Of a stretch of DNA of 64,000 nt, positions 13,780 through 64,000 are shown piece by piece. This stretch comes from an uncultured Bdellovibrionales bacterium (GTDB lineage Bacteria > Patescibacteriota > Minisyncoccia > Moranbacterales > UBA1568), in NCBI GenBank assembly GCA_964444815.1, contig CAYUIR010000001.1, forward strand, positions 78,031 through 142,030, written 5' to 3'. The position numbers were made by a program, and so were the translations under genes. Every line of letters starts with the position of its first letter. Positions within the stretch are counted from its first letter, which is position 1. The notes beneath the pieces were generated by a model that made no database searches, was not told the DNA's origin, and saw only the letters and a list, made by a program, of their open reading frames with translations.

Positions 13780-14541
13780 ATGAAGAATAAATCATTCCCA
13801 ATCAGAACACGTTTTGCAAAGGACATCGTAGCGGAAGTACAGTTGCCAGAGCGCCAAATTGGGAAGATAGCTATTATTGCGAGCGGACTCCCCTCTGCCC
13901 CTGTTAAAAAGGAGTTTCTGCACTTTCTAGCTGCGCATGGTTATGTCGTTATCTTTCCTCGCTACCGCGGTACTTGGGAGAGCGATGGTGCATTTTTACG
14001 TGAATCGCCAGCGAAGGACATCGCTGATATTCTTTCTCAACTTGCGAAGAAGAAAAGCATTGTAGATCTCTTCACCAAAGAGAATATTTCTATAAAAGTT
14101 TCGACAGTTCATTTGTTCGGCTCATCATTTGGAGGACCGGCCGTACTACTAAATAGCAAGCATCCACTGGTCAAAAAAGTTATTGCTATTGCTCCTGTTA
14201 CAAATTGGCGTGTCGAAGGGGAGTCTGAGTCTTTTGTAGAGCATGTTCGTTCTACTCAGGCGACATTTGGTATGGCCTTTCGTCCGAATCATGATGGTGA
14301 TTGGTTGAAATTAATCCGGACTAATTTTTATAATCCCATTGATCATCTCGATCAAATCGATGGCAGTAAAGTCTTCATCATTCATGCTCAAGACGACACG
14401 CTTGTTCCAATCAGACCCTCGGTTGATTTCGCACAAAAAACACAATCAGCCATTTATATCAAACCGAGTGGCGGACATGGACTTCGTATGACCCACGGAT
14501 TTCTTTGGAAGAAAGTTGAGGCCTTTCTCAAGAAGCGATAG
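13780..14541 (+). CDS. alpha/beta hydrolase (S9/dienelactone-hydrolase-like)
   Basis: Nucleophile elbow GSSFGG, acid HAQDDTLVP, His in SGGHGL. Confidence 0.7.
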   Translation: MKNKSFPIRTRFAKDIVAEVQLPERQIGKIAIIASGLPSAPVKKEFLHFLAAHGYVVIFPRYRGTWESDGAFLRESPAKDIADILSQLAKKKSIVDLFTKENISIKVSTVHLFGSSFGGPAVLLNSKHPLVKKVIAIAPVTNWRVEGESESFVEHVRSTQATFGMAFRPNHDGDWLKLIRTNFYNPIDHLDQIDGSKVFIIHAQDDTLVPIRPSVDFAQKTQSAIYIKPSGGHGLRMTHGFLWKKVEAFLKKR

Positions 14542-14560
14542 CAATAAAAATTTGACATGA

Positions 14561-14602
14561 GACTCCCCTGGCGATTTTTTGAAAAAAGAGGGGAGTCTTT
14601 TT
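14561..14602 (+). terminator. rho-independent terminator after the hydrolase gene
   Basis: GACTCCCCT (14561-69) pairs with AGGGGAGTC (14589-97), followed by TTTTTA. Confidence 0.75.
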
Positions 14603-14856
14603 ATGCTCCGTACTATTGATAATACATCAAAATATTCGGATCGTTTTGATGGTATCTTTATCTCATGTCTGAGTATTCATGATTCAAGCAAAGGAGGAGG
14701 GATAGATGTATACCCCCGTAGATTCAAATGCCTCACAATCGATTATACGCATTCGTATATTCATAAAAATACAAAGCGCCAGTGGAGTACGATGATTGTA
14801 CGTGGTAGCGGATTATCTCTCTCTGGCTCTTCCTTACGTAATGTCCTATAAGTTAC

Positions 14857-14900
14857 ATTGTGAGACGTATAGACAATACTTCTCTCAAATAAGCCACGGA
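14857..14900 (+). repeat. direct repeat R1 (left copy) flanking AT-rich island I
   Basis: ATTGTGAGACGTATAGACAATACTTCTCTCAAATAAGCCACGGA. 42/44 identical to 16922-16965, with weaker similarity for about 150 nt further. Confidence 0.85.
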
Positions 14901-15095
14901 TCAAAGCTCGGTCTGGATATACCCTGTACCCATGACATACGCCACGCGTCTTTCCCCTACTACGATGGTCGGAAAAAACGAGAGTGGTATTTTGAATAAT
15001 AAAACAGAATGTAGCAAAAAATCTTCGAAAAAATCACTTCAATTTCGTAACCACCCCCCCCTACTTTTTCTTGCTTTGCGGGGGATTTACTAGAA

Positions 15096-15125
15096 AATAA
15101 AAAAGCCATCACTACAGATAGATGG
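15096..15125 (-). terminator. terminator of the ImmA-like/TM operon
   Basis: CCATC (15106-10) pairs with GATGG (15121-25). On the minus strand it is followed by a T-run. Confidence 0.6.
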
Positions 15126-15141
15126 TTTCTATAGGTCGACT

Positions 15142-15525
15142 CTATTTATTAGAATACGGATGGTTATTATATTTAATATCTGTAAAAATCCATCTCACCA
15201 TTATTTTTACGATTAAGACCGTTTCTCCCAGAGTGCCTAATGTTAATACTGAAAGAAAAGGCTGTAAATCAAAGACGTATGGTGAGTCTTTATACGTATA
15301 AAATATTACCCATATAAATACATACGTGATAATATTCTGCACCAACAGAAAAATAGGAAAAGCATATGCAAAAAACTTTCTGATGGTAAGTTTAAAAGCG
15401 GCATCTTTTTGCCATGTCTCCATTATAGAGGCAATGGCCTGATCTTTTTTGCTAGAAAAAACTTCCGCTTGTTCGGAGTAACTGAAATCACCGTTGTCTT
15501 CTGTTATTTGTGGTTCAGCAGGCAT
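15142..15525 (-). CDS. small membrane protein (2-3 TM), translationally coupled to the ImmA-like protease
   Basis: 127 aa. Acidic N-terminus then hydrophobic helices (FAYAFPIFLLVQNIITYVFIWVIFY; FLSVLTLGTLGETVLIV). Start overlaps the upstream stop by 11 nt. Confidence 0.6.
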   Translation of the reverse strand: MPAEPQITEDNGDFSYSEQAEVFSSKKDQAIASIMETWQKDAAFKLTIRKFFAYAFPIFLLVQNIITYVFIWVIFYTYKDSPYVFDLQPFLSVLTLGTLGETVLIVKIMVRWIFTDIKYNNHPYSNK

Positions 15526-16027
15526 AATCAGTTAATCCAAGATTTTTCAATCTATAAGCCATTGCAGTTTGGGAAACACCAAAGACACTTGCAATTAATG
15601 TTACATCCTTGGTTTTTGACCACCATATTTCTATTAAAGGTTTCGGCATCAGTAGACTTGCAGCAAAAGTATTTGCTTCTGCTTCTTCAGTCTTATCCTG
15701 CATTTCTAGATTCACAGTGTCTAGTCTCCAAAAAGTGTCTTTTTGTTTATCTTTGTGTAAGATGTAGTGCCCTAATTCATGAGCAATAGTAAATGACACT
15801 CTAGGAAAATACTCACCATCTGCAACATATATAGTTTTTGATACTCGATCTAGCTGTCCTAAAGCATCGGGTTCAGAAAAGTTAACCTTTTTTAAGGACA
15901 GGCCATATTTTTTAGCAACTTTCCCCAGATCTACTGGCGGAACAATTTGTTCTTCGCCATAAACTTCCGCAAGAACATCGGCTGCTTGAGCTTCTAAAGT
16001 ATTGAGTTTTTCTTGGCTGAGTTTCAT
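15515..16027 (-). CDS. ImmA/IrrE-family (COG2856-like) zinc metallopeptidase
   Basis: HEXXH as AHELGHYILH, downstream EEAEANTFAASLLMP, and a C-terminal VFGVSQTAMAYRLKNLGL tail typical of the family. Confidence 0.75.
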   Translation of the reverse strand: MKLSQEKLNTLEAQAADVLAEVYGEEQIVPPVDLGKVAKKYGLSLKKVNFSEPDALGQLDRVSKTIYVADGEYFPRVSFTIAHELGHYILHKDKQKDTFWRLDTVNLEMQDKTEEAEANTFAASLLMPKPLIEIWWSKTKDVTLIASVFGVSQTAMAYRLKNLGLTDYAC

Positions 16028-16111
16028 ATATAACTAGTTTACTACGCTTTCAGTATACCACAGGGATTGTTCCCTTTCCGCCTATTGAGTAGGTGTTATT
16101 TTTTCTATCTA

Positions 16112-16786
16112 CTAAGGAGTTGAAGATGGCGTCGTAGTAGGAATTTTATTTGGAAACTCGTAGATGATTTTTAGTAACATTTCAACAAAAGAGAGAAGAT
16201 TTTTTGCTTCTTCTTCAGTCATGATTGTAATCTCGTGATTAGCTTCATTTCCCTTTTGACGAATGTGGTCTACCCACCCTTTCGATGCCGGTGGAATATA
16301 GTTCTCATCAGATAGATATTCAACGTATTGAAGAAAGTTCAAATTTTGTGCGGCACCTTTATCTACAGCAACATGCATGAGTAGTTTTCGGCAAGATAGT
16401 ACCGTTGCAGTAAATGCATTTTTCGAATAAGCATCCCTTGCTTCTGTATAGAGATTTTTTACACCGTTGTCCGTAATTCCATTTACATCCCCACCTGGCC
16501 TAATACCAGGAGTTTGTTTTCTAGCTGCATCAAAAAATGTTGGCCTATAACAGTGATGGCAAATGTAAATTTCACCTTTTCTATCTCCACGACCATCTTC
16601 AAGTTCCCCTCGAAAAAAACCAACATTTGAAGCTAAGGAATTATTACAATAGCCACATGTATAGCTTTTTGAATTGAGAATACTCGTATTACTCCAAAAA
16701 TAGCTCATTCCATTAAAACGCTCAATATATTTATATCTTATTATACCACCAAAAATATAGTTGTAATATTTGATAAAATATGACAT
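16112..16786 (-). CDS. zinc-ribbon + DUF4145-like domain protein
   Basis: CGYC...CHHC ribbon, then a helical C-terminal domain (LSCRKLLMHVAVDKGA...WVDHIRQKGNEANHE...EEAKNLLSFVEMLLKIIYE) recalled as DUF4145. The start could be the second MSYF (16708). Confidence 0.55.
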   Translation of the reverse strand: MSYFIKYYNYIFGGIIRYKYIERFNGMSYFWSNTSILNSKSYTCGYCNNSLASNVGFFRGELEDGRGDRKGEIYICHHCYRPTFFDAARKQTPGIRPGGDVNGITDNGVKNLYTEARDAYSKNAFTATVLSCRKLLMHVAVDKGAAQNLNFLQYVEYLSDENYIPPASKGWVDHIRQKGNEANHEITIMTEEEAKNLLSFVEMLLKIIYEFPNKIPTTTPSSTP

Positions 16787-16827
16787 ATTCTTAAAATTAT
16801 ATTTATGTTCCTTTATTTAAGCCTTTT

Positions 16828-16851
16828 GTCCTTTAAATGAAATTAAAGGAC
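16828..16851. promoter_or_regulatory. 9-bp perfect inverted repeat upstream of the DUF4145 gene
   Basis: GTCCTTTAA-ATGAAA-TTAAAGGAC, 42 nt upstream of ATG 16786. Confidence 0.5.
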
Positions 16852-16921
16852 ATTTTTGTTTTAGGAGAAAACCGACTCAATTTATTTCTATTTTTACTGC
16901 CCTGCTGGTCGTTTAACTAGA

Positions 16922-16965
16922 ATTGTGAGACGTATAAACAATACTTCTCTCAAACAAGCCACGGA
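16922..16965 (+). repeat. direct repeat R2 (right copy) flanking AT-rich island I
   Basis: ATTGTGAGACGTATAAACAATACTTCTCTCAAACAAGCCACGGA. 42/44 identical to R1. Confidence 0.85.
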
Positions 16966-17127
16966 CTAAAAAGATACAGTACCGCATGTGTATTGCGCTC
17001 GATTTCCTGTTTATCCCCCTGCCCAGATGGCGTCAGATTTCAATGAGTACTTTTAAATATTGAATGAGGAAAGTTTCGGAAATTTTATGGTAAAAAATAT
17101 CGCGAGTTTTATATGCTACCCCCTACT

Positions 17128-17159
17128 GAAAATGAAAATTCCGGTGGTGGAGTCCGGAA
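17128..17159 (-). terminator. hairpin + T-run downstream of the 39-aa ORF
   Basis: TTCCGG (17139-44) pairs with CCGGAA (17154-59). The minus strand continues TTTTCATTTTC. Confidence 0.55.
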
Positions 17160-17207
17160 ATTAAAAAAAGCCCCGTGAATACGGAGCTTGGCGTTCAATT
17201 TGATTCT

Positions 17208-17327
17208 TTAGCGGAAGGCTCGGAGGACCAAGATGACGAGGATGACGACTACAGCGAGGCCGACACAACCACAGCCACGTCGACGACGGAGGCCACCTCC
17301 TATACTATTACGAAATCTTCCAAACAT
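17208..17327 (-). CDS. possible 39-aa basic/hydrophobic peptide (MFGRFRNSIGGGLRRRRGCGCVGLAVVVILVILVLRAFR)
   Basis: ATG 17327, stop 17208. Sits between two minus-strand terminators. No clear Shine-Dalgarno. An acidic ORF (17175-17384) lies antisense to it. Confidence 0.3.
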   Translation of the reverse strand: MFGRFRNSIGGGLRRRRGCGCVGLAVVVILVILVLRAFR

Positions 17328-17390
17328 ATGAGCATGCAAATGACTTATTTTGTATACAATAAGTATATCACAACTCCAATCTGAGTAAGA

Positions 17391-17418
17391 AAAAACCGGT
17401 CGGTACGCGATGCGTACC
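17391..17418 (-). terminator. terminator of the GGDEF gene
   Basis: GGTACGC-GAT-GCGTACC (17402-17418). The minus strand continues GACCGGTTTTTTTC. Confidence 0.75.
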
Positions 17419-17433
17419 TTCCGGTGGTCGGTT

Positions 17434-18345
17434 CTACTCGATAGCGTCAAGGTTGATATCGAGCGCTGTGTGGAGCACCGACTGGGTCGAGATGCAGACG
17501 GTATTTCCGCCTTTCTTTTTGGCGCGGTACATGGCCTCATCGGCTAGGCTCATCAGCCTGCTCAGAGTCACTGCGATATCGGACCCCGGCTCAATACTGC
17601 CGTCCATGATGCCGATGGAAGCAGTTACCTGTGGCTTACCTTCGATGAGCTGGAAGCGCCCATCCTGAGACATCTGCATGAGGAGCCGCTGTGCGCGTTC
17701 GCTGGCAAATGATGCATTCGCATTGAATGCCGCTAGCACGAACTCATCTCCACCTCGTCGACCAATGAGGTCTGTTCCCCGAGGGAAGCATTCACGAACG
17801 AGCTGGGCAAAGGCACACAGCACGCGATCGCCACCATCGTGTCCCTCGCTATCGTTGTAGATCTTGAAACCATCGAGGTCCACGTAAAGGACTGAGACAT
17901 CCGCGGTCGACTGAGGGTATGACGCTCGGAGCTGGTTCTGAGCCTCGGCGAAAAAGAACTCTTCGAATCCAGAGCGACTCAGAAGGCCCGTCAAAGGGTC
18001 TCTCGTTGAGCGTTCTTCGGCCAACCTGAGAGCGTTTGCAAGAGACGCTACCTGAGGCCGGAGACGTTTGATTTCCTGCTGTGCCTGATCGAGCTCGCTG
18101 ATCAGTCCCTCGAAGGTGTGTGCGCCGGTCTCCGTGGCCGCAGCCTCGTTGTGCCTCATCGTTTCAATACCCGCAAGGAGCGCCTTGTTCGCTTCCTCTA
18201 GCTTGCTGAGCTTATCTTCCAGAGCTTTCTCCGTCATCGCGTGTCGCTCCTCCGCTCTTGTGGCGGCGACACGGGCAATCCAGAGAAGGACAGTCAGAAG
18301 CAGAACGAGCACGCCGAGAAGCATGCTGGCGACAAAATAATCCAT
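17434..18345 (-). CDS. membrane-anchored diguanylate cyclase (TM + coiled coil + GGDEF)
   Basis: N-terminal TM helix, coiled coil, then LLSRSGFEE...VLYVDLDGFKIYNDSEGHDGGDRVL...RGTDLIGRRGGDEFVL. The RxxD I-site lies 5 residues before GGDEF. Confidence 0.85.
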   Translation of the reverse strand: MDYFVASMLLGVLVLLLTVLLWIARVAATRAEERHAMTEKALEDKLSKLEEANKALLAGIETMRHNEAAATETGAHTFEGLISELDQAQQEIKRLRPQVASLANALRLAEERSTRDPLTGLLSRSGFEEFFFAEAQNQLRASYPQSTADVSVLYVDLDGFKIYNDSEGHDGGDRVLCAFAQLVRECFPRGTDLIGRRGGDEFVLAAFNANASFASERAQRLLMQMSQDGRFQLIEGKPQVTASIGIMDGSIEPGSDIAVTLSRLMSLADEAMYRAKKKGGNTVCISTQSVLHTALDINLDAIE

Positions 18346-25315: not shown

Positions 25316-26353
25316 TCATTTCGCTAATTCGGTTTCGATGGCAGATTGGATGTCCTCACGGCTGACAGCGCCGTCGAGGAAAGTACCGTTCACAAAGGTG
25401 GCTGGAGTTGCTGCAATGTTGAGAGACGACGCCTCTTCCTTATCACGAGCTACTTGTTCACGAGGGGCTCCAGTTGCGAGGCAGGCAGTAAAAGCGCGAC
25501 CGTCGAGCTTGAGCCACCAGGCATAGTCTTTGAACTTCTGAGTACCCTTGGCCTTGCTCCACTCCCCTTGTTTGGTAAAGAGATAGTCAGCATAGGTATC
25601 AAACTTACCCTGCGCATGAGCACAGAGTGAGGCGACGGCTGCATTTTCGGCCTGGGCATGAAACGACAATGGCAAGTGTTTGTAGACTACCCGGACCTGA
25701 TCGCCAAATGGAGCGACAGCTTGCTTGAGGGTCTCACGGTAGGTACCGCAGTGAGTACACTCAAAGTCAGTATAGGTGACGATAGTGACTGGAGCATCTG
25801 CTCCACCACGGACGATGTCTCCTTCGCCGACAGTCGGAAGCTTGAGATATCGTCCAGCCGGGAGTCCGATGCGACTCATATCAAAGAAATACTGGCCATC
25901 CTGTCCCGCGAAGAGACTTGAGGCCTGTGAGTAAAAATTGGTATGGAGGATGTCTTTCGAAAAGATAAAAGCTGGGAGGGTCACAATATCAAATCGTTCG
26001 GCCAAACGCTTCCCGTACTCATCACCGATGTCGACCCGGACCGCATCAAGGGTCGGGATGACACGACGGAGCCACACCAGGGCCTCGTTCGGGTCGCAAG
26101 CATAACAGTTCTTGTCGGTAATAACCGTGAGATCAACTTTGGGATCGGCATAGCCCACCCAAGTCTTGCCACTCGTTTCGAGAACATTGTGAGTTTTGGT
26201 GGCATAGGAAGAGAATCCTTCCCCGCTCACCAGCTGAACAAAATCCACCGCGAGGCTTCCGAGAAACAGTCCACCCAAGATAATCGCCAACGCCAGGAGA
26301 TTCTGGGCATCATACTTTGGCTTGGCTTCACTCATCTTGGATCCTTCGTTCAT
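25316..26353 (-). CDS. membrane-anchored DsbA-family thiol:disulfide oxidoreductase
   Basis: TM anchor. Thioredoxin fold with FECTHCG (CxxC). An N-terminal second thioredoxin-like half contains CYAC. Confidence 0.8.
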   Translation of the reverse strand: MNEGSKMSEAKPKYDAQNLLALAIILGGLFLGSLAVDFVQLVSGEGFSSYATKTHNVLETSGKTWVGYADPKVDLTVITDKNCYACDPNEALVWLRRVIPTLDAVRVDIGDEYGKRLAERFDIVTLPAFIFSKDILHTNFYSQASSLFAGQDGQYFFDMSRIGLPAGRYLKLPTVGEGDIVRGGADAPVTIVTYTDFECTHCGTYRETLKQAVAPFGDQVRVVYKHLPLSFHAQAENAAVASLCAHAQGKFDTYADYLFTKQGEWSKAKGTQKFKDYAWWLKLDGRAFTACLATGAPREQVARDKEEASSLNIAATPATFVNGTFLDGAVSREDIQSAIETELAK

Positions 26354-33627: not shown

Positions 33628-34149
33628 TTAAATTTTCTCTTTTAGAATTTTGTTGATGAACTCTAGCTTTCTTCGATAATATTCTCGCGTTGATAGGCCG
33701 TTGCCAGACTCTTTCAATCTTCTGTATTCTTCCAGCTTGGCTGGGTCGCTTCGCAGGATAGTCTCAAATTTTACCAAGTTTTTCCAGTCGACACTCTCTT
33801 CATTGATCGGGAAAATGTCGATATGTTTGCCGTTTTCCTCTGTAACAAACCGGGCTCGTTTCAGAGGGTAGAAACTTCTGGGCTCACCAAAGCGTGACTT
33901 CAAAGCCTCGACTAACGCTTCAAATCTCGCTGGACTTACTGGGAGGTACACATCAATTTCGTCCTGACCAGATATACCGAGACTCGTCGCGCCATGATGC
34001 TCTATCCTGACATCCTGTCCCAAAGCCTCCTGTATCTTGGCTCTTACCCTTTGAAACTTCTCTTCCGCCGTAATATCAAATGGAACTATCGTGATAGTTT
34101 TGATATCCGATAGGCGTGCAATCCACTTTTCCTGTTCAGGTGTTAACAT
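33628..34149 (-). CDS. GrpB-like nucleotidyltransferase-fold protein
   Basis: IEHHGATSLGISGQDEIDVYLPV...HIDIFP pattern recalled from the GrpB family. The start overlaps the upstream stop (TAATG). Confidence 0.6.
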   Translation of the reverse strand: MLTPEQEKWIARLSDIKTITIVPFDITAEEKFQRVRAKIQEALGQDVRIEHHGATSLGISGQDEIDVYLPVSPARFEALVEALKSRFGEPRSFYPLKRARFVTEENGKHIDIFPINEESVDWKNLVKFETILRSDPAKLEEYRRLKESGNGLSTREYYRRKLEFINKILKEKI

Positions 34150-34439
34150 TATTTACTTTTTCTAAGCTTCACTTCTAGAATAAGTGCTGAACCAATAAAG
34201 AGTATGAAGTCAAAAAGAAGCTTAGCTACTGAAAAGCCATACTCTTTTTCAAAAGTGTAGGCACCTATGTAGACTTCATTCGGACCTTCCCAAATAAATG
34301 GGAGCGGAAAACCCACTATTACTTTTGGTGAGTCTGCAGTAAGCATAAGAGGAATTAGCTGCAAAGTTAGCCCGATGAGTATTGTGACAATCAATAGAAA
34401 GAGTTTACTTGGTCTCATAGAACTATGGCCTCTCACCAT
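34149..34439 (-). CDS. small membrane protein (96 aa, 3 TM)
   Basis: Hydrophobic helices. Coupled to the GrpB-like gene by a 1-nt overlap. AT-rich. Confidence 0.5.
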   Translation of the reverse strand: MVRGHSSMRPSKLFLLIVTILIGLTLQLIPLMLTADSPKVIVGFPLPFIWEGPNEVYIGAYTFEKEYGFSVAKLLFDFILFIGSALILEVKLRKSK

Positions 34440-34476
34440 TCTTGTTGGCGATAGAGAGGATGAAGTTTATATTAAG

Positions 34477-35025
34477 CTAAGCAATAGTTATAAGCTGAAC
34501 TCCGGCTGGAATTTTTGCTTCTACAATCTCATGAACAAGGCCTATGTTCTTCGCTTCTTCTGAGGAGATAATCCCCCCTTTTCTCATTAAGTCATCAATT
34601 ACTTTATAATCAATCCCGGTAAAGTCACTAACATTCTTTGCGATGTTCTCTCTGTCTCGTCTAAGAGTAGCCAATCTTTCACCTAACTGCTCTTCAGTTA
34701 AGCTGGACTGCCCGAAGTTTGCCATGACCCCGTGAAATAAAAAGGATGAGTTTTTCTGAGCGAGACGCTTAGTGCCAGCAGAAAATATCACGCTTGCAAT
34801 TGAATCAATTTGTCCAACATTATGGACATTAATTGGTATCGGCGAAGACTTGATAAGAGTCGCAATATTCATACCATCAAAAACGCTTCCACCGGGAGAC
34901 GAGATAAGAATATTAATTTCAGTAAATTGGCTATTGATAGCAGTTGTAATTGCACCAAGAAGCTGTCCAGCAGACTGAGAGTTTACGCCAGCCTGAAAAA
35001 TTATATATAGTTGCTTCATATCCAT
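34477..35025 (-). CDS. ClpP-fold serine protease-like protein (stand-alone)
   Basis: ISSPGGSVFDG, GQIDSIASVIF (compare ClpP GQAASMG), FLFHGV (compare MIHQP), EEAKNIGLVHEIV (compare EA..YGL.D). Confidence 0.65.
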   Translation of the reverse strand: MDMKQLYIIFQAGVNSQSAGQLLGAITTAINSQFTEINILISSPGGSVFDGMNIATLIKSSPIPINVHNVGQIDSIASVIFSAGTKRLAQKNSSFLFHGVMANFGQSSLTEEQLGERLATLRRDRENIAKNVSDFTGIDYKVIDDLMRKGGIISSEEAKNIGLVHEIVEAKIPAGVQLITIA

Positions 35026-35690
35026 TATTGCTTAGCTATCTTTCTAATTACATCTACTGCCGGAGAATTATAAATAAATTCTACCTGCGAACTTACCTCC
35101 GTAAGAATACTGTGTGCATTTCCAGTTGCCGTAAACTCGATGTGGATCTGTCCGGGTTGTGGCATGGGTTGACCGGGGACATTCATTGCTTGTAAACCAG
35201 GTTGAACAATAACTGGTGCGCTTGTTGTAGACTGAACTGGAGAAATCTTCTGATCTGCAATTCTTCTAATCAAATAGTCAAGAAACTCTACACTGGAATA
35301 GAATCGACTTATAGTATCTGCTCCGGTTTCCTCAAGTTCTGAGATGAACAAATGTATACTATTGTTCCAACTATTTGTTGGTAAAAGGGTGTGTGATAAT
35401 CGATAGGTATGGTTATTTAATCTGGCTTCTCTAATCTTTTGTTCCGCACTACGTATTTCTTGGAGGATGAGACTAGCAATATCGCGTTTCTGGTCCTGCT
35501 TTTGTTTCAAATACAAATAGTAAGCAACAAATGCTGTAAAAAGAGTTAGGACAGCCACGAAAAACTGAGAATTAAGTGCCAACCAAACTTTTGGAAAGTT
35601 TTCAATTACGGCACTTAATATAAAGATTGCCCCAGCTAATAGCGCCGATGAAGTAACTACATATGTTGCAATGTTAAATACTTTTTTCAT
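35025..35690 (-). CDS. 2-TM membrane protein with helical/Pro-Gln-rich ectodomain
   Basis: 221 aa, two N-terminal TM helices. The stop overlaps the ClpP-like ATG by 1 nt. Confidence 0.5.
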   Translation of the reverse strand: MKKVFNIATYVVTSSALLAGAIFILSAVIENFPKVWLALNSQFFVAVLTLFTAFVAYYLYLKQKQDQKRDIASLILQEIRSAEQKIREARLNNHTYRLSHTLLPTNSWNNSIHLFISELEETGADTISRFYSSVEFLDYLIRRIADQKISPVQSTTSAPVIVQPGLQAMNVPGQPMPQPGQIHIEFTATGNAHSILTEVSSQVEFIYNSPAVDVIRKIAKQ

Positions 35691-35716
35691 ACAGTTTAGT
35701 ATTTAGTTAATTATAT

Positions 35717-35775
35717 AAAAGCGGGGCGAAATGCCCCGCTTTTATGCTACTCTTATTTCTTTTCTTCTTCAACTT
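35717..35775 (-). repeat. copy r1 of the dnaK 3' end + terminator repeat
   Basis: AAAAGCGGGGC-GAAAT-GCCCCGCTTTTATGCTAC-TCTTATTTC..., also serving as terminator of the 217-aa gene. Confidence 0.8.
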
Positions 35776-36406
35776 TGCTTTCAGGCGCCCCGTCTGAAGC
35801 CGAGGTAGGCTCAGATTGTACTACTTCTGAAAGCTGTGGTCTTGATGGCACATATGGGGATAAGAGATTCTCACTCCCCTTATGTTCCGGCGACAATTGA
35901 GTGAGATTCTTAGGTTCACCGTTCATATTATTAAAGTTAATGGCAGAAAAGATAAGAATTGAAACAAGGGCGAAAATAAATGTCGATATAGTTATATAGT
36001 TTGTTCTTGTGATACTTTTACCGTACTTCCGTGGAGGAATAAACCCAACAATACTACTACTATTCATAAACATCCGGTCCATGGGAGAGATATCTGCATA
36101 CCACTTGTCTAACGATAGAATTTGATCTTCACTTTGCCAAGTGCTCAACAGATACCCAATTATCTGTGATACTATTGAAATGCTCAGTAGTATCCAAGAA
36201 ATAAAGAGAAGTGATGTGAAATCAAAATGGAGATTCGTATTAAATACGACATTAACAGAGAGAACAAAAACACCTGTAACTAGGTAGAGCAACATCTTAT
36301 CAAGAGCGTTTTGAGAAGAAAGATGATGTGTACGGGCCTGCTCTCTAGTTCTGTTGTAATAATCTTGAGCCTCTTCAAAACTTAAGTTTGGCATATGTTT
36401 ATCCAA
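35753..36406 (-). CDS. polytopic membrane protein (217 aa)
   Basis: 3-4 TM helices and a C-terminal acidic/Ser-rich tail ending EEEKK. AT-rich. Confidence 0.5.
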   Translation of the reverse strand: MDKHMPNLSFEEAQDYYNRTREQARTHHLSSQNALDKMLLYLVTGVFVLSVNVVFNTNLHFDFTSLLFISWILLSISIVSQIIGYLLSTWQSEDQILSLDKWYADISPMDRMFMNSSSIVGFIPPRKYGKSITRTNYITISTFIFALVSILIFSAINFNNMNGEPKNLTQLSPEHKGSENLLSPYVPSRPQLSEVVQSEPTSASDGAPESKVEEEKK

Positions 36407-50622: not shown

Positions 50623-52530
50623 TTATTCCTGACCGGGTTCAATGAGTACCGTCACCCGACTGTTTGAGCTGGGGACCGTCCTCGTGAACCACTGGGGCTT
50701 GAAGGCAATCTCAATTTTCTTGATCTCTGGGAATGACGCCAAGACTTCATCGATACCCTTCTCATCTTTACCGAGGATGGCTTCTTCGAACACGTCGCGA
50801 TTGATCACTGACTCTGAAATTACCTTGGCATGAGTCTTTAACTTGACTGTCCGAGCGTCGAAATCGGGTACTGCCTCTCCATAACTTAGGACCACATCGA
50901 CTGGTTGAAACGATACGCCAGAAACCATATTCTTCCCCTGCGAGAGTATATACTGCTTGATGGCTTCTTCTGAGTACACGAAGCCTCGTATCCGATAGGT
51001 GTTTTCGTACTCAAACGATGTCGCCACTGTACCCGAAAGTGGTAACGTGGCGTCGCTCAATGAGATGATATCGAGATTCTCCTCCAGGATACGTTCACCC
51101 GGCAAAAGCTCTGACTTGGCGCTTTCGAGAAATACCTCTCGCGCCCTAGTCCGTGCTTCGAGCGAGGCTTTTTCAAGGTCGGACTTGGCAATAACGGTTT
51201 GATTAGCACTACCACTCCCATCACTGCCGCCAGCCATGGCCTTGACGATTCGGGCCGAGAATTTATCATACTTGGGACTCCCCTTGAAACCAGGGATGGT
51301 AAAAGTTCCCGAAGAAATATTGTAACTCGTACCTGTCTGATCGGCGATGACGCTCGCCTCGATGGTCCCAGGAGTCGTCCCCTTCATCCCCGGCACTGTT
51401 ACGCCCTCAGTGAGACGAAATACCTTGCCATCAGCGGTCTCAAATCGAGTCGTAGCCACGAGAGACTGTGGATCACTGCTAAACGTGTTCGAGATAGCTA
51501 TCGTCCCGCGAGCTTTCTGAGTGGTACCAGCGGCGGTACCAGTCGCCTCGACTGAAAGTTTGGCCTTCTGTTCTTTTTCAATGATACGAACGGGCACCGT
51601 AAGAGTATCAGATGGTTCTACATCAGCCCGACCCTCAAATGGGAGGTCAACTTCTTGCACCGTTCGGTATGGTACGACGTGCACCTCTGCTTTGGGGAGA
51701 AAAAGAAATGTCCCCACACCGATGAGTGACATAAGCGAAATACCTCCAAGTATGGCAAAAATTCGGCCAGCCTTGGGCGATGTCACGGGGATGCGAGGCG
51801 CGGATGAAGGGGTCACTTCGGCCAACTTTGGCTCTGACTCATTTCTCGGTACGCCACCTTGGGTAAAAAAATTGCGGAGACGAGCTTCTCTACCGGTTTG
51901 AGTGGCCTCGCGATTCGCTCCACGTTCGCTTGGGGTCGGAGGCACGACAGGCATCGAGCGCTCAATCGGGAGTACTATCTGTGGTCGGAGACCCTGCGGA
52001 GCGGGTTTCGCTTGCATACTCGGCGCACCATCAAAGCGCTTAGAATTGAGACTCGGTGGCCGTTCGGGTGTAGCATTGCGGATACGAAGTGTCCGAGCTC
52101 CGGGCGCCGCTGGCTCTCGAGCGGGCGCACTCTTTGGAGGCTTGATCCCCCCTCCGTAAAAATCACTACTCCCGATATCTTGAGATCGGAGTCCACCGAG
52201 CGTGGGCTTGATGGTAGAAAGAGGCGCAGGTGTCACTTCCGGGGTGAGTTCGATATGCTCTGCAGCGCGTGAAAAATCGTCCGTATAGCGCTCGGCCGTG
52301 AGCCCAGCCTTCTCAGCGAGGAGCATCCCAGCCTCGTCTTGGGTCACGATCACGATACGTTTGCCAAGCTTTTCTGCTTCACGCTGAAAGAGTCGTAGGT
52401 TGACAATACTCTGGAGGACTAGCGCGCGCTTGGGAAAGACAAAGTAATTCTCCTCGGATGATGAGCGACGCAATCGCCCAATCACGGAGATAATTTCTTC
52501 GTCGTTTTCGATATAAAATGTCTGAGGCAT
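50623..52530 (-). CDS. bitopic membrane protein: small cytoplasmic domain, Pro-rich linker, TM, large ectodomain
   Basis: 635 aa. TM IFAILGGISLMSLIGVGTFLFL near aa 255. The start lies 4 nt after the ftsA-like stop. Confidence 0.6.
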   Translation of the reverse strand: MPQTFYIENDEEIISVIGRLRRSSSEENYFVFPKRALVLQSIVNLRLFQREAEKLGKRIVIVTQDEAGMLLAEKAGLTAERYTDDFSRAAEHIELTPEVTPAPLSTIKPTLGGLRSQDIGSSDFYGGGIKPPKSAPAREPAAPGARTLRIRNATPERPPSLNSKRFDGAPSMQAKPAPQGLRPQIVLPIERSMPVVPPTPSERGANREATQTGREARLRNFFTQGGVPRNESEPKLAEVTPSSAPRIPVTSPKAGRIFAILGGISLMSLIGVGTFLFLPKAEVHVVPYRTVQEVDLPFEGRADVEPSDTLTVPVRIIEKEQKAKLSVEATGTAAGTTQKARGTIAISNTFSSDPQSLVATTRFETADGKVFRLTEGVTVPGMKGTTPGTIEASVIADQTGTSYNISSGTFTIPGFKGSPKYDKFSARIVKAMAGGSDGSGSANQTVIAKSDLEKASLEARTRAREVFLESAKSELLPGERILEENLDIISLSDATLPLSGTVATSFEYENTYRIRGFVYSEEAIKQYILSQGKNMVSGVSFQPVDVVLSYGEAVPDFDARTVKLKTHAKVISESVINRDVFEEAILGKDEKGIDEVLASFPEIKKIEIAFKPQWFTRTVPSSNSRVTVLIEPGQE

Positions 52531-60943: not shown

Positions 60944-62722
60944 CTACTTCCCATTCACATTGGACTTTATATCACACGCAAAGTTGAAGTAGCCTTGGGT
61001 AGCGGTGAGATTGAGGAAGGGCTTATCGGGACTCGCCGTGTCTACCAAGATAGTCAAGATGACATTGACTATGAGGTAGGCAGAGAGCATCACGGCAAAG
61101 CCAATGAGAGAAGCTATCATGCCTCCTTTGGCCGTTTGCATCATGCCACTATTCCCCGCTGAGAGGATGTAGAGGACTCCCATGGCAAAGATGACGGTAA
61201 TGGCTATGATCGCCATGATCTTGAGTCCCCAGGCAACGAGGCCTTGACCTCCTAAGACGATGTGACAGAGGGTGCAAGGTTTGGTTTCGTCTATATCAGT
61301 CGTATTCTTGTTGTCGATGTTTCGGCCACAAGGGATGAGAGAGGGAGAGTCGGCAGAGGGAGATGGGGCTGGAGTAGGATTGGGAGGTGCGATAGGACTA
61401 GGACCAGGACCAGGGGCCGGTGACGGACCGGGGCCAGGGGATGGAGCAGGTCCCGGCGTAGGAGTTGGCCCAGGACCGCCCGATGGCTTCCCTTCATTAC
61501 AAAGCGCTCGTGTCCCACCACTGATACCATCGCAATTCCAGTACCAGTTGCCCCCATCTTCTTGTGGAGTTGAGCTGGTTCCGGCTAAACAATTGTTGTG
61601 GGTCGGAGCGCACCTACCATCAATCGGACCACCCCCTCCACCGCCGGTTCCACCTCCACCACCACTGCCTCCACCACTGCCACCCACGGTCACCGTAACA
61701 GATTTTTTGCCCGCTGAGACACCATTAGAATCCAAGCAATCCAGATAATACGTAGTGGTAACACTCACAAACTGTACGGCCGACCCATTGGGAAGATCGG
61801 TGATATTGCCATTCCAACCACCAGAGGCAAAGCAGCCAGCGACACCACTGGTTTGCCAAGAAAGAGTGGCCTGGCCAGGAGCAGGCAGCGATGTCACACT
61901 CCCGGTAAATATGACACTGGGTTTGCCTGGGGCCGACGCCGTACACGATGTCTGCGTCGGTTCTGAAAATACGCCATCCATACAACTATAGGTCGTACTC
62001 CCGATGTAGCCAGGTTGTGTGTTGGCGACAGCTTTGGATTTGCCTGATTCGAGGGTCTCCGAAACATAGGCGCTACAGTTGGTCATCCACACCAGATTGC
62101 CCATAAACGTACAAGGGGCTCCTGGTGTCACCGTAACAGGGACAGATCTCGTTGGACTACTCTCGCGAGGAGAGCCGTTAACATAATTCACGCACGTCAT
62201 CGTATAGGTGGTTGATTCAGTCGGATACAGTTGTTTGCTCCCGTTCTGCTGTTGCGGGCCGATTGGACCTCGTGAATCATTCAAGAAACACACCACATCA
62301 CTCCCTCCGGTAGAGCTCCATGTCACAGTAACTGGATTTCCCGCCTTGACGGAGGTAGGATTAGCAGAAAGGTCGAGTGTAACATCAGATACTTGGGTTA
62401 CCAATACACGTTCACCACTTGATGCATTTGTATTGTCCCAGCACTCGAGATAATAGGTAACTTGCTTCGTAACGACTACCTTCATCGAGCCACTAGTTGT
62501 TGGCCACGGTCCAGTCCACGGAGAGTTGTCAGTGGCTGTACAACGTGTGGCACCACTGATAGTCCAGATAATATCTATACTCGTCCCTGACGGAACCGTT
62601 GCCGGACTCGGATTCGATGTCAGTGTCACCACTGGAGCAGCCCAAACCAGCTGTGGCATGAAAAACCATGTCACTCCCAATACTCCTCCACCCAGCCACT
62701 GCCAAAGTCTCGATGTTGTCAT
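60944..62722 (-). CDS. large surface protein: signal peptide, repeated Ig-like Cys-pair modules, poly-Gly and Pro-rich linkers, C-terminal TrbC/VirB2-like pilin TM hairpin
   Basis: Three roughly 70-aa modules (..W.xSGAxxC...TYYLxC..). GGSGGGSGGGGGTGGGGGG. GPGPTPTPGPAPSPGPGPSPAPGPGPSP. C-terminus IMAIIAITVIFAMGVLYILSAGNSGMMQTAKGGMIASLIGFAVMLSAYL. Confidence 0.7.
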   Translation of the reverse strand: MTTSRLWQWLGGGVLGVTWFFMPQLVWAAPVVTLTSNPSPATVPSGTSIDIIWTISGATRCTATDNSPWTGPWPTTSGSMKVVVTKQVTYYLECWDNTNASSGERVLVTQVSDVTLDLSANPTSVKAGNPVTVTWSSTGGSDVVCFLNDSRGPIGPQQQNGSKQLYPTESTTYTMTCVNYVNGSPRESSPTRSVPVTVTPGAPCTFMGNLVWMTNCSAYVSETLESGKSKAVANTQPGYIGSTTYSCMDGVFSEPTQTSCTASAPGKPSVIFTGSVTSLPAPGQATLSWQTSGVAGCFASGGWNGNITDLPNGSAVQFVSVTTTYYLDCLDSNGVSAGKKSVTVTVGGSGGGSGGGGGTGGGGGGPIDGRCAPTHNNCLAGTSSTPQEDGGNWYWNCDGISGGTRALCNEGKPSGGPGPTPTPGPAPSPGPGPSPAPGPGPSPIAPPNPTPAPSPSADSPSLIPCGRNIDNKNTTDIDETKPCTLCHIVLGGQGLVAWGLKIMAIIAITVIFAMGVLYILSAGNSGMMQTAKGGMIASLIGFAVMLSAYLIVNVILTILVDTASPDKPFLNLTATQGYFNFACDIKSNVNGK

Positions 62723-62745
62723 AATACAAACTTATCTCTTATGTG

Positions 62746-64000
62746 TTACCCAAAAAACTGAGCCACCTGAGTCACCATGACCAGAGCTGCGAGAGCAATA
62801 GCGATAGCGATGGTAGCATAGGTCACGATCTTCTTGCCTGTTTCTGCCTTACCCTCGTCTCCCCCAGCGGTGAGGTACATGAGACCACCGATAACCAGCA
62901 TGATGATCGCGATGATGCCTACGATGGAGAGGAGGAAGCTTAAGACCTTAGAGGCTATCTCAGTAAAGGTTTGAGCTTCTTCGACTACTTGGGTGACTTC
63001 TATCCAGCCTAAGAGTTCTCCAATTTCTTTGAGGAAGGCAGGAGCAGCGATAGCGAGAGCGAGACCAACCATAGAGGCAGTGATGGCTACTTTAGCCTGA
63101 GTGACTCGTGATTCATTGCCAGCCGAGAGGATATACATGACCGCTCCTACGATAATCATGATGATAGAGAGGACGACTACGATACTCTGAAGGGTTGAGA
63201 GGACGGCGGTTAAGACACTGTCTAAGGAATTGTATTTGAGAGGGTTAAAGTAGCCCACTCCAGGAGAAGGGAGGGCGAGAGGGGTACAGCAGGAGGCTCC
63301 GGTATCACCACAGGTGCCTGAAGCTTGAGTGTACTTGTCAGGGGCACATCCTCCTGAGACACAGGTGTTTGGGGCTTGGCAGGTGCCATCGCCTAAGGGA
63401 GGAGCGGGAGGTCCAGGGGGAAGAGGTGGGGCTGGAGGACCCAGGGGGAGAGGAGGCGGAACGGGGCCGCTACAATCGTTTTTGGCACAAGAAGAGCTAC
63501 ACTCAGCGGGACAGAAACCATTACTTCCGGTTCCCCTATCACAGGCTTCACCGGGATCTATCTTGCCATTGCCACATTTGCGGGGATCAACCTGAGGAGG
63601 CGTAAATGACCCACCATCAGAGTCACGAAACACTGCCTCCGTGGTCGCCCGAAATGTACCCCATTTATTGGTACACTCGATACTAAAAGTCCGCGGGGCT
63701 GTGACAGAAAATGGGGTCGATCGATGGTAGCCCGAGATATCCACTGGACCATCCCGATTGAGGGTGGCGCTCCCATTGTCAAGCCAGTCTACTGCCTTAC
63801 ACGTTGCCGGAGGGTAGACCCCATTATCATAGACCTGCCAGATGATGACTCCTTGTCCACCAGGAACGGTATAACCGCCTGGCGAGAGCGCAATATACAC
63901 GCTTGGATAATTTGGTAGGCCATTATCGACTGTCACGCTCAAGTTGGCACTCACGCTGTCCTCTGGCGTGAGGTAGCCCCGAGCAGCGATGACGGCCTCG
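62746..64000 (-). CDS. partial CDS (5' end outside window): surface protein with Ig-like module, Cys-rich and PPAPPLP linkers, and two tandem pilin-like TM hairpins
   Basis: The frame stays open upstream of the GTG at 63954 to the window edge. MYILSAGNESRVTQAK... and MYLTAGGDEGKAETGK... modules. Confidence 0.7.
   Translation of the reverse strand, partial: EAVIAARGYLTPEDSVSANLSVTVDNGLPNYPSVYIALSPGGYTVPGGQGVIIWQVYDNGVYPPATCKAVDWLDNGSATLNRDGPVDISGYHRSTPFSVTAPRTFSIECTNKWGTFRATTEAVFRDSDGGSFTPPQVDPRKCGNGKIDPGEACDRGTGSNGFCPAECSSSCAKNDCSGPVPPPLPLGPPAPPLPPGPPAPPLGDGTCQAPNTCVSGGCAPDKYTQASGTCGDTGASCCTPLALPSPGVGYFNPLKYNSLDSVLTAVLSTLQSIVVVLSIIMIIVGAVMYILSAGNESRVTQAKVAITASMVGLALAIAAPAFLKEIGELLGWIEVTQVVEEAQTFTEIASKVLSFLLSIVGIIAIIMLVIGGLMYLTAGGDEGKAETGKKIVTYATIAIAIALAALVMVTQVAQFFG

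Follow-up and report, generated by a model that had tools for sequence, protein, structure and literature searches.

The last ~3 kb of a 64-kb stretch of a patescibacterial contig (64,000 nucleotides, hereafter the window) are filled by two adjacent open reading frames (ORFs) on the minus strand, gene 1 and gene 2. Their products join a head of Ig-like and Cys-rich domains, through low-complexity stalks, to a membrane hairpin of the VirB2-like pilin type, which is single in gene 1 and tandem in gene 2. Comparison with related loci reveals that the hairpins (anchors) are 92–100% identical between relatives, while the heads are 40–60% identical or replaced altogether. We consider it fairly probable (roughly 0.6) that the two genes display variable binding heads at the membrane on a conserved, functional VirB2-like anchor that docks to pilins or their machinery, and that the heads are swappable modules for recognition of a host or a surface. 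VirB2-like pilins themselves are already known; new here are patescibacterial VirB2-like pilins with swappable ectodomains, and our literature search found no paper describing ectodomain-fused or tandem proteins of the Pfam family PF18895. Chance ORFs or an assembly artefact are ruled out by the presence of the same proteins in several independent assemblies. Related loci and proteins are designated below by L and P numbers, respectively.

Domain architecture of the two proteins

Behind its signal peptide, the gene 1 protein has three Ig-like domains, two Cys-rich modules, stalks rich in Gly or Pro, and a single VirB2-like hairpin that is probably clamped by Cys. Relative to transcription, gene 2 lies upstream of gene 1 and not downstream, as a sequence-only reading of the window had it, and the two are separated by 23 nt. 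No terminator-like site is present in this 23-nt gap, and the two genes are probably co-transcribed. Full-length orthologs of gene 2 were found on two metagenome contigs (L017 and L018) and comprise a signal peptide and three Ig-like domains; with 592 aa for gene 1 and 623 aa for these orthologs, the label 'giant' given to the two proteins in the same reading does not fit. The features, in window positions, are as follows.

60944..62722, minus strand: gene 1, complete ORF of 592 aa; an identical protein is present in other assemblies
62639..62722, minus strand: gene 1 signal peptide (aa 1–28), read from the sequence, ending ...LVWA and followed by AP
62120..62638, minus strand: gene 1 Ig-like domains 1 (aa 29–112) and 2 (aa 113–201), β-sandwiches in the AlphaFold2 model (predicted local distance difference test score, pLDDT, 80–94)
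61931..62119, minus strand: gene 1 four-Cys module (aa 202–264), AlphaFold2 model unreliable (pLDDT <50), 65% identical to the ortholog P0002
61685..61930, minus strand: gene 1 Ig-like domain 3 (aa 265–346) with the Cys pair C297–C329, AlphaFold2 pLDDT ~80–90
61625..61684, minus strand: gene 1 Gly-rich stalk (aa 347–366, a 20-aa Gly run), read from the sequence; Tandem Repeats Finder (TRF) reports a 12-nt unit
61487..61624, minus strand: gene 1 four-Cys knot (aa 367–412), CAPTHNNC...WYWNC...C, 83% identical to P0002
61349..61486, minus strand: gene 1 Pro-rich stalk (aa 413–458), which holds the homology breakpoints relative to loci with other heads
60947..61348, minus strand: gene 1 pilin module (aa 459–592), with LIPCG...CTLCH, helix 1 (~486–520), loop SAGNSGMMQTAKGG, helix 2 (~525–562) and a tail with C583
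62746..64000, minus strand: gene 2, running past the window edge, with the 5′ end outside and 417 codons visible; orthologs of 623 aa in L017 and L018
63625..63999, minus strand: last Ig-like domain of gene 2 (visible aa 1–125) with the Cys pair C67–C109, 60% identical to L017/L018; a homologous head sits on the other anchor in P0003/L002
63469..63624, minus strand: Cys-rich module of gene 2, CGNGKIDPGEACD...CPAECSSSCAKNDC, including CPAECSSSC, read from the sequence
63391..63468, minus strand: Pro-rich stalk of gene 2, 26 aa, variable in length among alleles
63256..63390, minus strand: membrane-proximal six-Cys knot of gene 2, shared with the short 240-aa tandem pilin of L002
63010..63255, minus strand: pilin hairpin 1 of gene 2, with an NPLKYN motif, transmembrane helix 1 (TM1), loop SAGNESRVTQAK and TM2; PF18895; AlphaFold2 helices 11–43 and 48–82 of the module
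62749..63009, minus strand: pilin hairpin 2 of gene 2, with TM3, loop TAGGDEGKAETGKK and TM4; contains the best PF18895 stretch (aa 328–395); AlphaFold2 helices 97–128 and 134–168

The motifs quoted in the sequence-only reading are all present: IDIIWTISGATRCTA...TYYLEC, CGNGKIDPGEACD...CPAECSSSC, the hairpin motif LYILSAGNSGMMQTAK in gene 1, the hairpin motifs MYILSAGNESRVTQAK and MYLTAGGDEGKAETGKK in gene 2, the Gly run, and GPxP and PPAPPLP stretches in the linkers of the two proteins. Its description of a single hairpin in gene 1 and a tandem one in gene 2 is likewise upheld, with 2 and 4 predicted TM helices and with one and two hairpins in the AlphaFold2 models, respectively. Gene 1 contains 18 Cys and the visible part of gene 2 contains 14, both even counts, and none of these residues is located inside a TM helix. 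In the model of gene 1, three confident β-sandwiches (pLDDT ~80–94) precede a helical hairpin formed by residues 486–562 (pLDDT 70–78), while the tandem module of gene 2 is modelled as four long helices arranged as two hairpins with a mean pLDDT of 82.6. The loops of the gene 2 hairpins are basic, and the linker between the hairpins is acidic. The two hairpins of gene 2 arose by internal duplication, as is evident from a 50-nt direct repeat 258 nt apart, from the alignment of the two protein halves, and from the two PF18895 stretches.

Pilin-family membership of the hairpins

Membership of gene 2 in PF18895 (T4SS_pilin, for type IV secretion system, T4SS) is established. Specifically, the whole protein scores 64.6 bits and the isolated module 69.7 bits, in two stretches, above the Pfam gathering threshold of 26.6 bits. 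Every one of the 27 relatives of gene 2 that we sampled matches PF18895, and 6 of the 27 also match PF04956 (TrbC/VirB2), with a best E value of 1.3e-14. The tandem module has 145 relatives in a collection of 5.8 billion proteins; the best 120 of these all carry PF18895, many carry PF04956, and one has been named 'VirB2 component (pilin)' by JGI. Furthermore, hairpin 2 of gene 2, and nothing in gene 1, resembles NCBIfam NF045849, a pilin-like family of Mycoplasma integrative and conjugative elements (ICEs), at 30.6 bits and E 2e-7, which is below the cut-off of 40.

Membership of gene 1 is well supported by its relatives. All 13 orthologous modules match PF18895 at E≤0.01 (best 6e-8), and the profile of the gene 1 family aligns with that of the tandem family with an hhalign probability of 97.8% and an E value of 1e-12. 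The TrbC/VirB2-like pilin module proposed in the sequence-only reading thus stands as far as the pilin family is concerned, by the score of gene 2 and the profile match of gene 1, but gene 1 alone stays below the threshold and PF04956 gives no direct match; the kinship of both proteins with classical VirB2 is only transitive.

A signal peptide and two hydrophobic helices around a short polar or basic loop, as in VirB2-type pilins, are found by hydropathy, sequence and AlphaFold2. The size of the proteins differs from the ~70–130-aa precursor of that type, with 592 aa for gene 1 and at least 417 aa for gene 2, and the VirB3/VirB4/VirB6-type gene neighbourhood expected of a VirB2-type conjugative pilin is not found in the window. 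Neither protein has the prepilin signature of type IV pili (T4P), as judged by a PF07963 (N_methyl) match or the motif G[FMY][TS][LI][IVL]E, and the sortase motif LPx[TSA]G is absent from both. Sortase, T4P-pilin and lipoprotein anchoring were rejected, as no such motifs occur in either protein.

Fold of the heads

The folding of the gene 1 heads is reminiscent of surface adhesins. Foldseek matches these heads, modelled with three β-sandwiches (pLDDT ~85–94), to GhpA, SiiE, FdeC, ICAM and FnIII at E values of 1e-9 to 1e-7, bearing out at the fold level the Ig-like modules with a Cys pair that had been read from the sequence, and adhesin-like folds are supported. Domains 1 and 2 of gene 1 contain one Cys pair each (C61–C94 and C145–C177) and are ~28% identical to one another. 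The named Ig-like Pfam families Big_1, Big_2, fn3 and CARDB do not match either window protein at E≤1, and the likeness is at the fold level only. The Cys-rich module of gene 2 (63469..63624) has no Pfam or NCBIfam match; a Myxococcus-type Cys-rich repeat and DUF4215, tried as identities for its CGNG...C motif, were dropped on that account.

Conserved anchors, exchanged heads and variable stalks

The two proteins show a gradient of conservation from head to anchor. Between gene 1 and P0002, the Ig domains are 40–45% identical, the four-Cys knot 83% and the anchor 92.5%; between gene 2 and L017/L018, the head is 60% identical and the hairpins 98–100%. Between the window and the syntenic locus L002, housekeeping proteins are 75–97% identical (enolase 88%, MraY 97%) and the gene-1 anchor 94%, indicating that the anchors evolve like core proteins. 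An alignment of 13 gene-1-type modules that are 50–94% identical to that of the window has 41 invariant columns among 134, including the four Cys of the pilin module and the loop GMMQTAKGG.

Anchors of this kind bear different heads. At least four distinct heads, those of window gene 1, P0003, P0004 and the P0005/L017-L018-like proteins, are carried by anchors that are at least 91% identical (91–99%), and a headless version exists as a 160-aa short form in L005–L007 and L019, with an anchor 84–87% identical. In particular, P0003, which adjoins scpA in L002, combines a gene-2-type head with a gene-1-type anchor that is 93–94% identical to the window. At the DNA level, the window is a mosaic relative to L002, with 63840–63466 corresponding to the inside of P0003, 63390–62747 to a short tandem pilin, and 61416–54018 to the anchor plus the housekeeping block. 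In L017 and L018, the anchors are 98–99% identical to gene 1 (DNA 90.7–96%) and lie behind a different membrane-proximal module; there, the gene-2 ortholog comes after the gene-1-type gene, not before it.

All head-swap breakpoints are located in the stalk. The homology breakpoints in gene 1 lie in the Pro stalk, at 61416 relative to L002 and at 61422 relative to L017/L018. Comparison across assemblies, from which the stalk variation is drawn, further reveals that P0001 matches gene 1 except for two missing residues (AP) in the Pro stalk, and that the Pro stalk of gene 2 is 26 aa long in the window, 23 aa in L018 and 14 aa in L017, with anchors 98–100% identical. Together, the two-residue deletion, the stalk lengths and the breakpoints suggest that the stalks are hot spots for indels and recombination junctions. 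Simple repeat slippage in the G- and P-tract DNA, which the sequence-only reading had anticipated, was rejected as a major feature, because TRF detects only short, imperfect arrays in the Gly and Pro tracts (a 12-mer with 2.9 copies at 82% matches and a 6-mer with 3.5 copies) and no clean repeats. Linker DNA common to genes 1 and 2 was also considered as a recombination substrate; no such repeat is present in the window, and the idea comes down to the stalk breakpoints.

Short pilins, arrays and pilus operons in relatives

In other Moraniibacteriota, both anchor types also exist as short pilins, of 151–166 aa for the gene-1 type and 200–314 aa for the tandem type. In the short gene-1-type pilins, the signal peptide immediately precedes the LVPCG core. 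In L009–L016, a short gene-1-type pilin heads an array of 5–7 PF18895 genes that is closed by one or two tandem pilins; these arrays adjoin typA and contain no T4P genes. They resemble the published patescibacterial VirB2 arrays, which comprise 2–11 genes and are known from 383 assemblies (PMC12102498). Short and long paralogs also coexist within one metagenome-assembled genome (MAG), as in L007 and L004, with anchors 86% identical. The syntenic locus L002 has the order MFS transporter, two pilin genes, scpA, scpB, S11, mraY, pgk, eno, pfkB, and its tandem pilin is a 240-aa short form composed of a signal peptide, one knot and two hairpins. A different arrangement is seen in L014, where a 617-aa protein (L014:7502-9355) has an N-terminal pilin core and a 430-aa C-terminal extension with HEQLGH, a possible HExxH metalloprotease motif.

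The gene-1-type pilin is also found at T4P operons. In L005, L006, L007 and L019, the 160-aa form is the final gene of a complete T4P operon, and in L001 the 586-aa ortholog P0002 ends such an operon and is followed by a gene-2-like gene. The operons of these five loci (for example, L005:1302-10420 and L001:8-5018) encode PilB, PilT, PilC, N_methyl pilins, an A24 prepilin peptidase, minor pilins and a Fib_succ_major pilin-like protein. In L001, L005, L006, L007 and L019, a T4P operon thus carries a pilin gene of the T4SS family.

Frequency of the fusion

To count fusions, we performed an exhaustive phmmer search with the gene-1 module against 1.84 billion cluster representatives (50% identity) at E≤1e-3, which returned 1965 relatives. 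Among the best 150 of these, 111 carry an extension of at least 100 aa, N-terminal, C-terminal or both, although the proportion of variable long forms in this census is raised by the clustering at 50% identity. The best 150 are distributed as follows.

Short (≤220 aa): 33
C-terminal extension ≥100 aa only: 85
N-terminal extension ≥100 aa only: 9
Extensions on both sides: 17
Other: 6

The Pfam content of the 111 long relatives comprises PF18895 (87), SLT (15), SLT_3 (8), CARDB (4), fn3 (3), Flg_new_2 (3), Peptidase_S8 (2), NlpC/P60 (1) and others. The module has clearly undergone many independent fusions, and fusion is not the unusual event that the sequence-only reading took it for. In 23 of the 111 long relatives (within P0140–P0287), the fusion partner is a lytic transglycosylase (SLT 15, SLT_3 8), an enzyme resembling VirB1 and here joined to a VirB2-like hairpin.

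Ectodomain fusion is unusual in the tandem type. The best 120 of the 145 relatives are all 108–274 aa long, and the only long forms among the proteins compared are P0008 (622 aa), P0013 (841 aa) and the gene-2 orthologs. In L003:1-12526, P0013 comes after two giant proteins, one of at least 1858 aa and the other of 2067 aa, that have FG-GAP/VCBS-like repeats and a basic KGTGKLK tail at the end, with a Y1 transposase between them.

Proposed mechanism and alternative readings

In the mechanism that we favour, both proteins would be exported by the Sec pathway, tethered in the membrane and exposed on the surface. Both ends of each hairpin would lie outside the cell, with the short loop, polar or basic, on the cytoplasmic side, an arrangement known from VirB2. 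This topology is suggested by the ectodomains found at either hairpin end, by the Cys residues flanking both ends, and by the basic loops and acidic linker of gene 2. In particular, the ectodomain is N-terminal in the window, L001, L002 and L008, C-terminal in L014 and in 85 of the 150 representatives, and present on both sides in 17 of the 150. A clamp that ties the extracellular ends together would probably form in gene 1, from the three Cys that precede helix 1 and the one that follows helix 2. A DsbA/thioredoxin-like protein of 345 aa encoded in the window (25316–26353, minus strand) fits the extracytoplasmic disulfide formation that the Cys-rich ectodomains demand. The Gly- or Pro-rich stalk, 20–46 aa long, would carry the head off the membrane and across the cell wall, and the Ig-like heads would act as swappable binding modules for recognition of host cells or surfaces in an epibiotic lifestyle. 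The hairpin would dock to, or co-assemble with, further VirB2-like pilins of the cell or the machinery of these pilins; both the hairpin and its loop are strongly conserved at specific positions, which suggests a role beyond retention in the membrane. The build of the proteins, their place in the pilin family, the gradient of conservation, the exchange of heads and the frequency of fusions are direct observations, and a role in cell–cell attachment is plausible.

Several results weigh against this mechanism. Gene 1 scores below the PF18895 threshold, reaching 20.9 bits over its full length and 24.9 bits (E 2e-5) when only the module is scored, and PF04956 matches neither window protein directly at E≤1. 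No solved pilin matches the hairpins, either by sequence or by Foldseek at E≤1e-3, where helical hairpins carry little structural signal. The clamp and the Cys-rich modules of gene 1 are modelled at pLDDT <50, and the linkers are unreliable too. No T4SS (VirB4, VirB6, VirD4) or T4P genes are present in the 64-kb window. In related loci, no T4SS genes were recognised at distances up to ~10 kb from the module; for most of these loci the screen used the size of the ORFs and their N-terminal sequences, with Pfam used on L005 only. Finally, the module is fused to enzymes (SLT, S8, NlpC/P60) in relatives and may be a general anchor that is not specific to adhesins.

The last point leads to the reading in which the PF18895-like hairpin is a convenient two-helix anchor for exported proteins, with no role in a filament or in secretion, and in which 'pilin' denotes historical homology. 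The module is indeed joined, at either end, to many unrelated domains, enzymes included; T4SS genes are neither nearby in the window nor recognised in related loci, and there is no structural match to solved pilins. Ordinary anchors found on unrelated proteins had been named beforehand as the finding that would speak against a pilin-type module, and the extensions with SLT, SLT_3, Peptidase_S8 and NlpC/P60 come close to it, but the similarity to the pilin family holds. For a passive anchor, hydrophobicity would suffice, yet the 41 invariant positions of 134 include the loop between the helices, and conservation of the anchors equals that of enolase or MraY even as the heads are replaced. Moreover, the same module types stand free in multi-gene pilin arrays, and in Saccharibacteria such arrays are essential and lie inside a T4SS locus (PMC10633639). 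We regard a purely passive anchor as a possibility to be kept in mind, though on balance not a likely one.

Alternatively, the long forms might polymerise into a VirB2-type filament made mainly of short pilins, in which they would be minor subunits or sit at the tip, with the heads projecting on stalks. Membership in the pilin family and the coexistence of short and long versions of one module in a MAG (L004, L007) speak for such decorated pili. In the F- and T-pilus structures, both pilin termini are located on the outer face of the filament, and with termini facing outward a flexible stalk of 46 aa could conceivably accommodate a head without steric conflict. A patescibacterial T4SS pilus has already been speculated on in reviews (PMC12857230), but a VirB2-type pilus is not known to have been observed in Patescibacteria and assembly genes were not recognised nearby. 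Heads of at least 450 aa on each subunit would not pack, leaving only sparse incorporation feasible, and the tandem four-helix form has no known precedent among solved pilins. Such incorporation is, in our judgement, unlikely. A service of the gene-1-type module to a T4P machine, in place of a T4SS, is suggested by its position as the last gene of a complete T4P operon in L001, L005, L006, L007 and L019. Yet the gene adjoins scpAB in the window and L002, and heads PF18895 arrays beside typA, with no T4P genes, in L009–L016, and the protein has no N-methyl/prepilin motif; we consider this role improbable. The likelihoods given for display, passive anchoring, pilus incorporation and a T4P role overlap, because display and sparse incorporation are not exclusive.

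Comparison with known systems

The window proteins share with the patescibacterial VirB2-like pilins and their arrays (PF18895; Wang et al. 2023, PMC10633639; Quinonero-Coronel et al. 2025, PMC12102498) the Pfam family, the two-helix hairpin with a short polar loop, and the phylum. In relatives, short versions of both window anchor types are found within arrays of 5–7 genes, and a high diversity of paralogs is common to both systems. In contrast to the published pilins, which are treated as small, the window proteins have their signal peptide separated from the pilin core by an Ig-like/Cys-knot ectodomain of 250–450 aa plus a stalk, one of the genes has a tandem hairpin, and the locus adjoins scpAB, not virB4.

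The signal peptide, two hydrophobic helices and short loop of classical TrbC/VirB2/TraA pilins (PF04956) are also present in the window proteins. The classical proteins are roughly 70–130 aa long, compared with 592 and ~623 aa in the window, where the T4SS operon context is also missing. TrbC and VirB2 undergo head-to-tail cyclisation, a closure whose functional counterpart in gene 1 would be the proposed disulfide clamp. The Mbov_0395 family (NF045849) of Mycoplasma ICEs resembles hairpin 2 of gene 2 in two stretches and likewise comes from a monoderm lineage, but, unlike gene 2, the Mycoplasma protein is small (80 positions) and has no ectodomain. This likeness is in line with the MPF-FATA affinity that has been proposed for patescibacterial T4SSs (PMC12102498).

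On the side of the heads, SiiE, FdeC and the Aureispira grappling-hook protein GhpA are, like the window proteins, surface-exposed strings of Ig-like β-sandwiches. The sequence identity to them is 12–18%, and the window proteins have only three such domains. Anchoring also differs, with a pilin-type hairpin in the window, as opposed to retention by a type I secretion system, an outer-membrane barrel or the type IX secretion system in the Ig-repeat adhesins. Diversification of a surface pilin family, with presumed tuning to hosts, is further shared with the Bartonella Trw and Anaplasma VirB2 paralogs (cited in PMC12102498). In those systems the pilin itself varies, whereas in the window the pilin module is near-invariant and the appended head is exchanged as a cassette.

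Host and genomic surroundings

The locus belongs to a Candidatus Moraniibacteriota bacterium (Candidate Phyla Radiation, CPR/Patescibacteria), and the closest genomic loci are from MAGs labelled Candidatus Moraniibacteriota. The MAGs of L004–L008, L010 and L011 were deposited as 'uncultured Bdellovibrionales', yet their loci are clearly patescibacterial, being syntenic with Moraniibacteriota loci and containing PF18895 arrays, and the label, evidently assigned automatically, is probably a taxonomic error.

After gene 1, the same strand encodes scpA, scpB, a DD-carboxypeptidase, mraY, pgk, eno and pfkB. The rest of the window is mostly housekeeping, including tRNA synthetases, DnaK/GrpE/HrcA, DnaB, PriA, FtsA, FtsEX, RF2, glycosyltransferases and the DsbA-like oxidoreductase. 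Directly upstream of the ftsA-like gene lies a 635-aa ORF (50623–52530, minus strand) that has no Pfam match at E≤0.001. Two islets (14001–18000 and 34001–36000) have a GC content of 0.39–0.43, compared with ~0.52 elsewhere, and may be acquired DNA; the former encodes an M78/IrrE-like peptidase, a DUF4145 protein and a GGDEF protein, while the latter encodes a ClpP-like protease and ORFs without matches.

Implications

A wider reading, which we find doubtful at present, would make the VirB2-like hairpin a universal display module of Patescibacteria, forming T4SS-type filaments or membrane arrays with interchangeable heads and thus an 'armed', host-specific contact organelle. The heads would be Ig-like binders here, and VirB1-like lytic transglycosylases, subtilases or NlpC/P60 peptidases in relatives. 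Specificity would be re-set by moving head cassettes onto near-invariant anchors, and in the gene-1 type a disulfide clamp would do the work of peptide cyclisation.

VirB2-like pilins are among the few gene sets that are essential to the epibiotic life of a cultivated patescibacterium (PMC10633639). Present surveys treat VirB2 homologues as small, while at least 111 divergent clusters related to the gene 1 module bear large extracellular domains. If the module is only an anchor, counts of 'VirB2 pilins' in Patescibacteria overstate their capacity for pili. The heads are candidate determinants of host recognition, and the invariant hairpin and loop are a candidate surface for interaction with the machine. 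The combination of a conserved anchor and a swappable head predicts host specificity at the level of strains.

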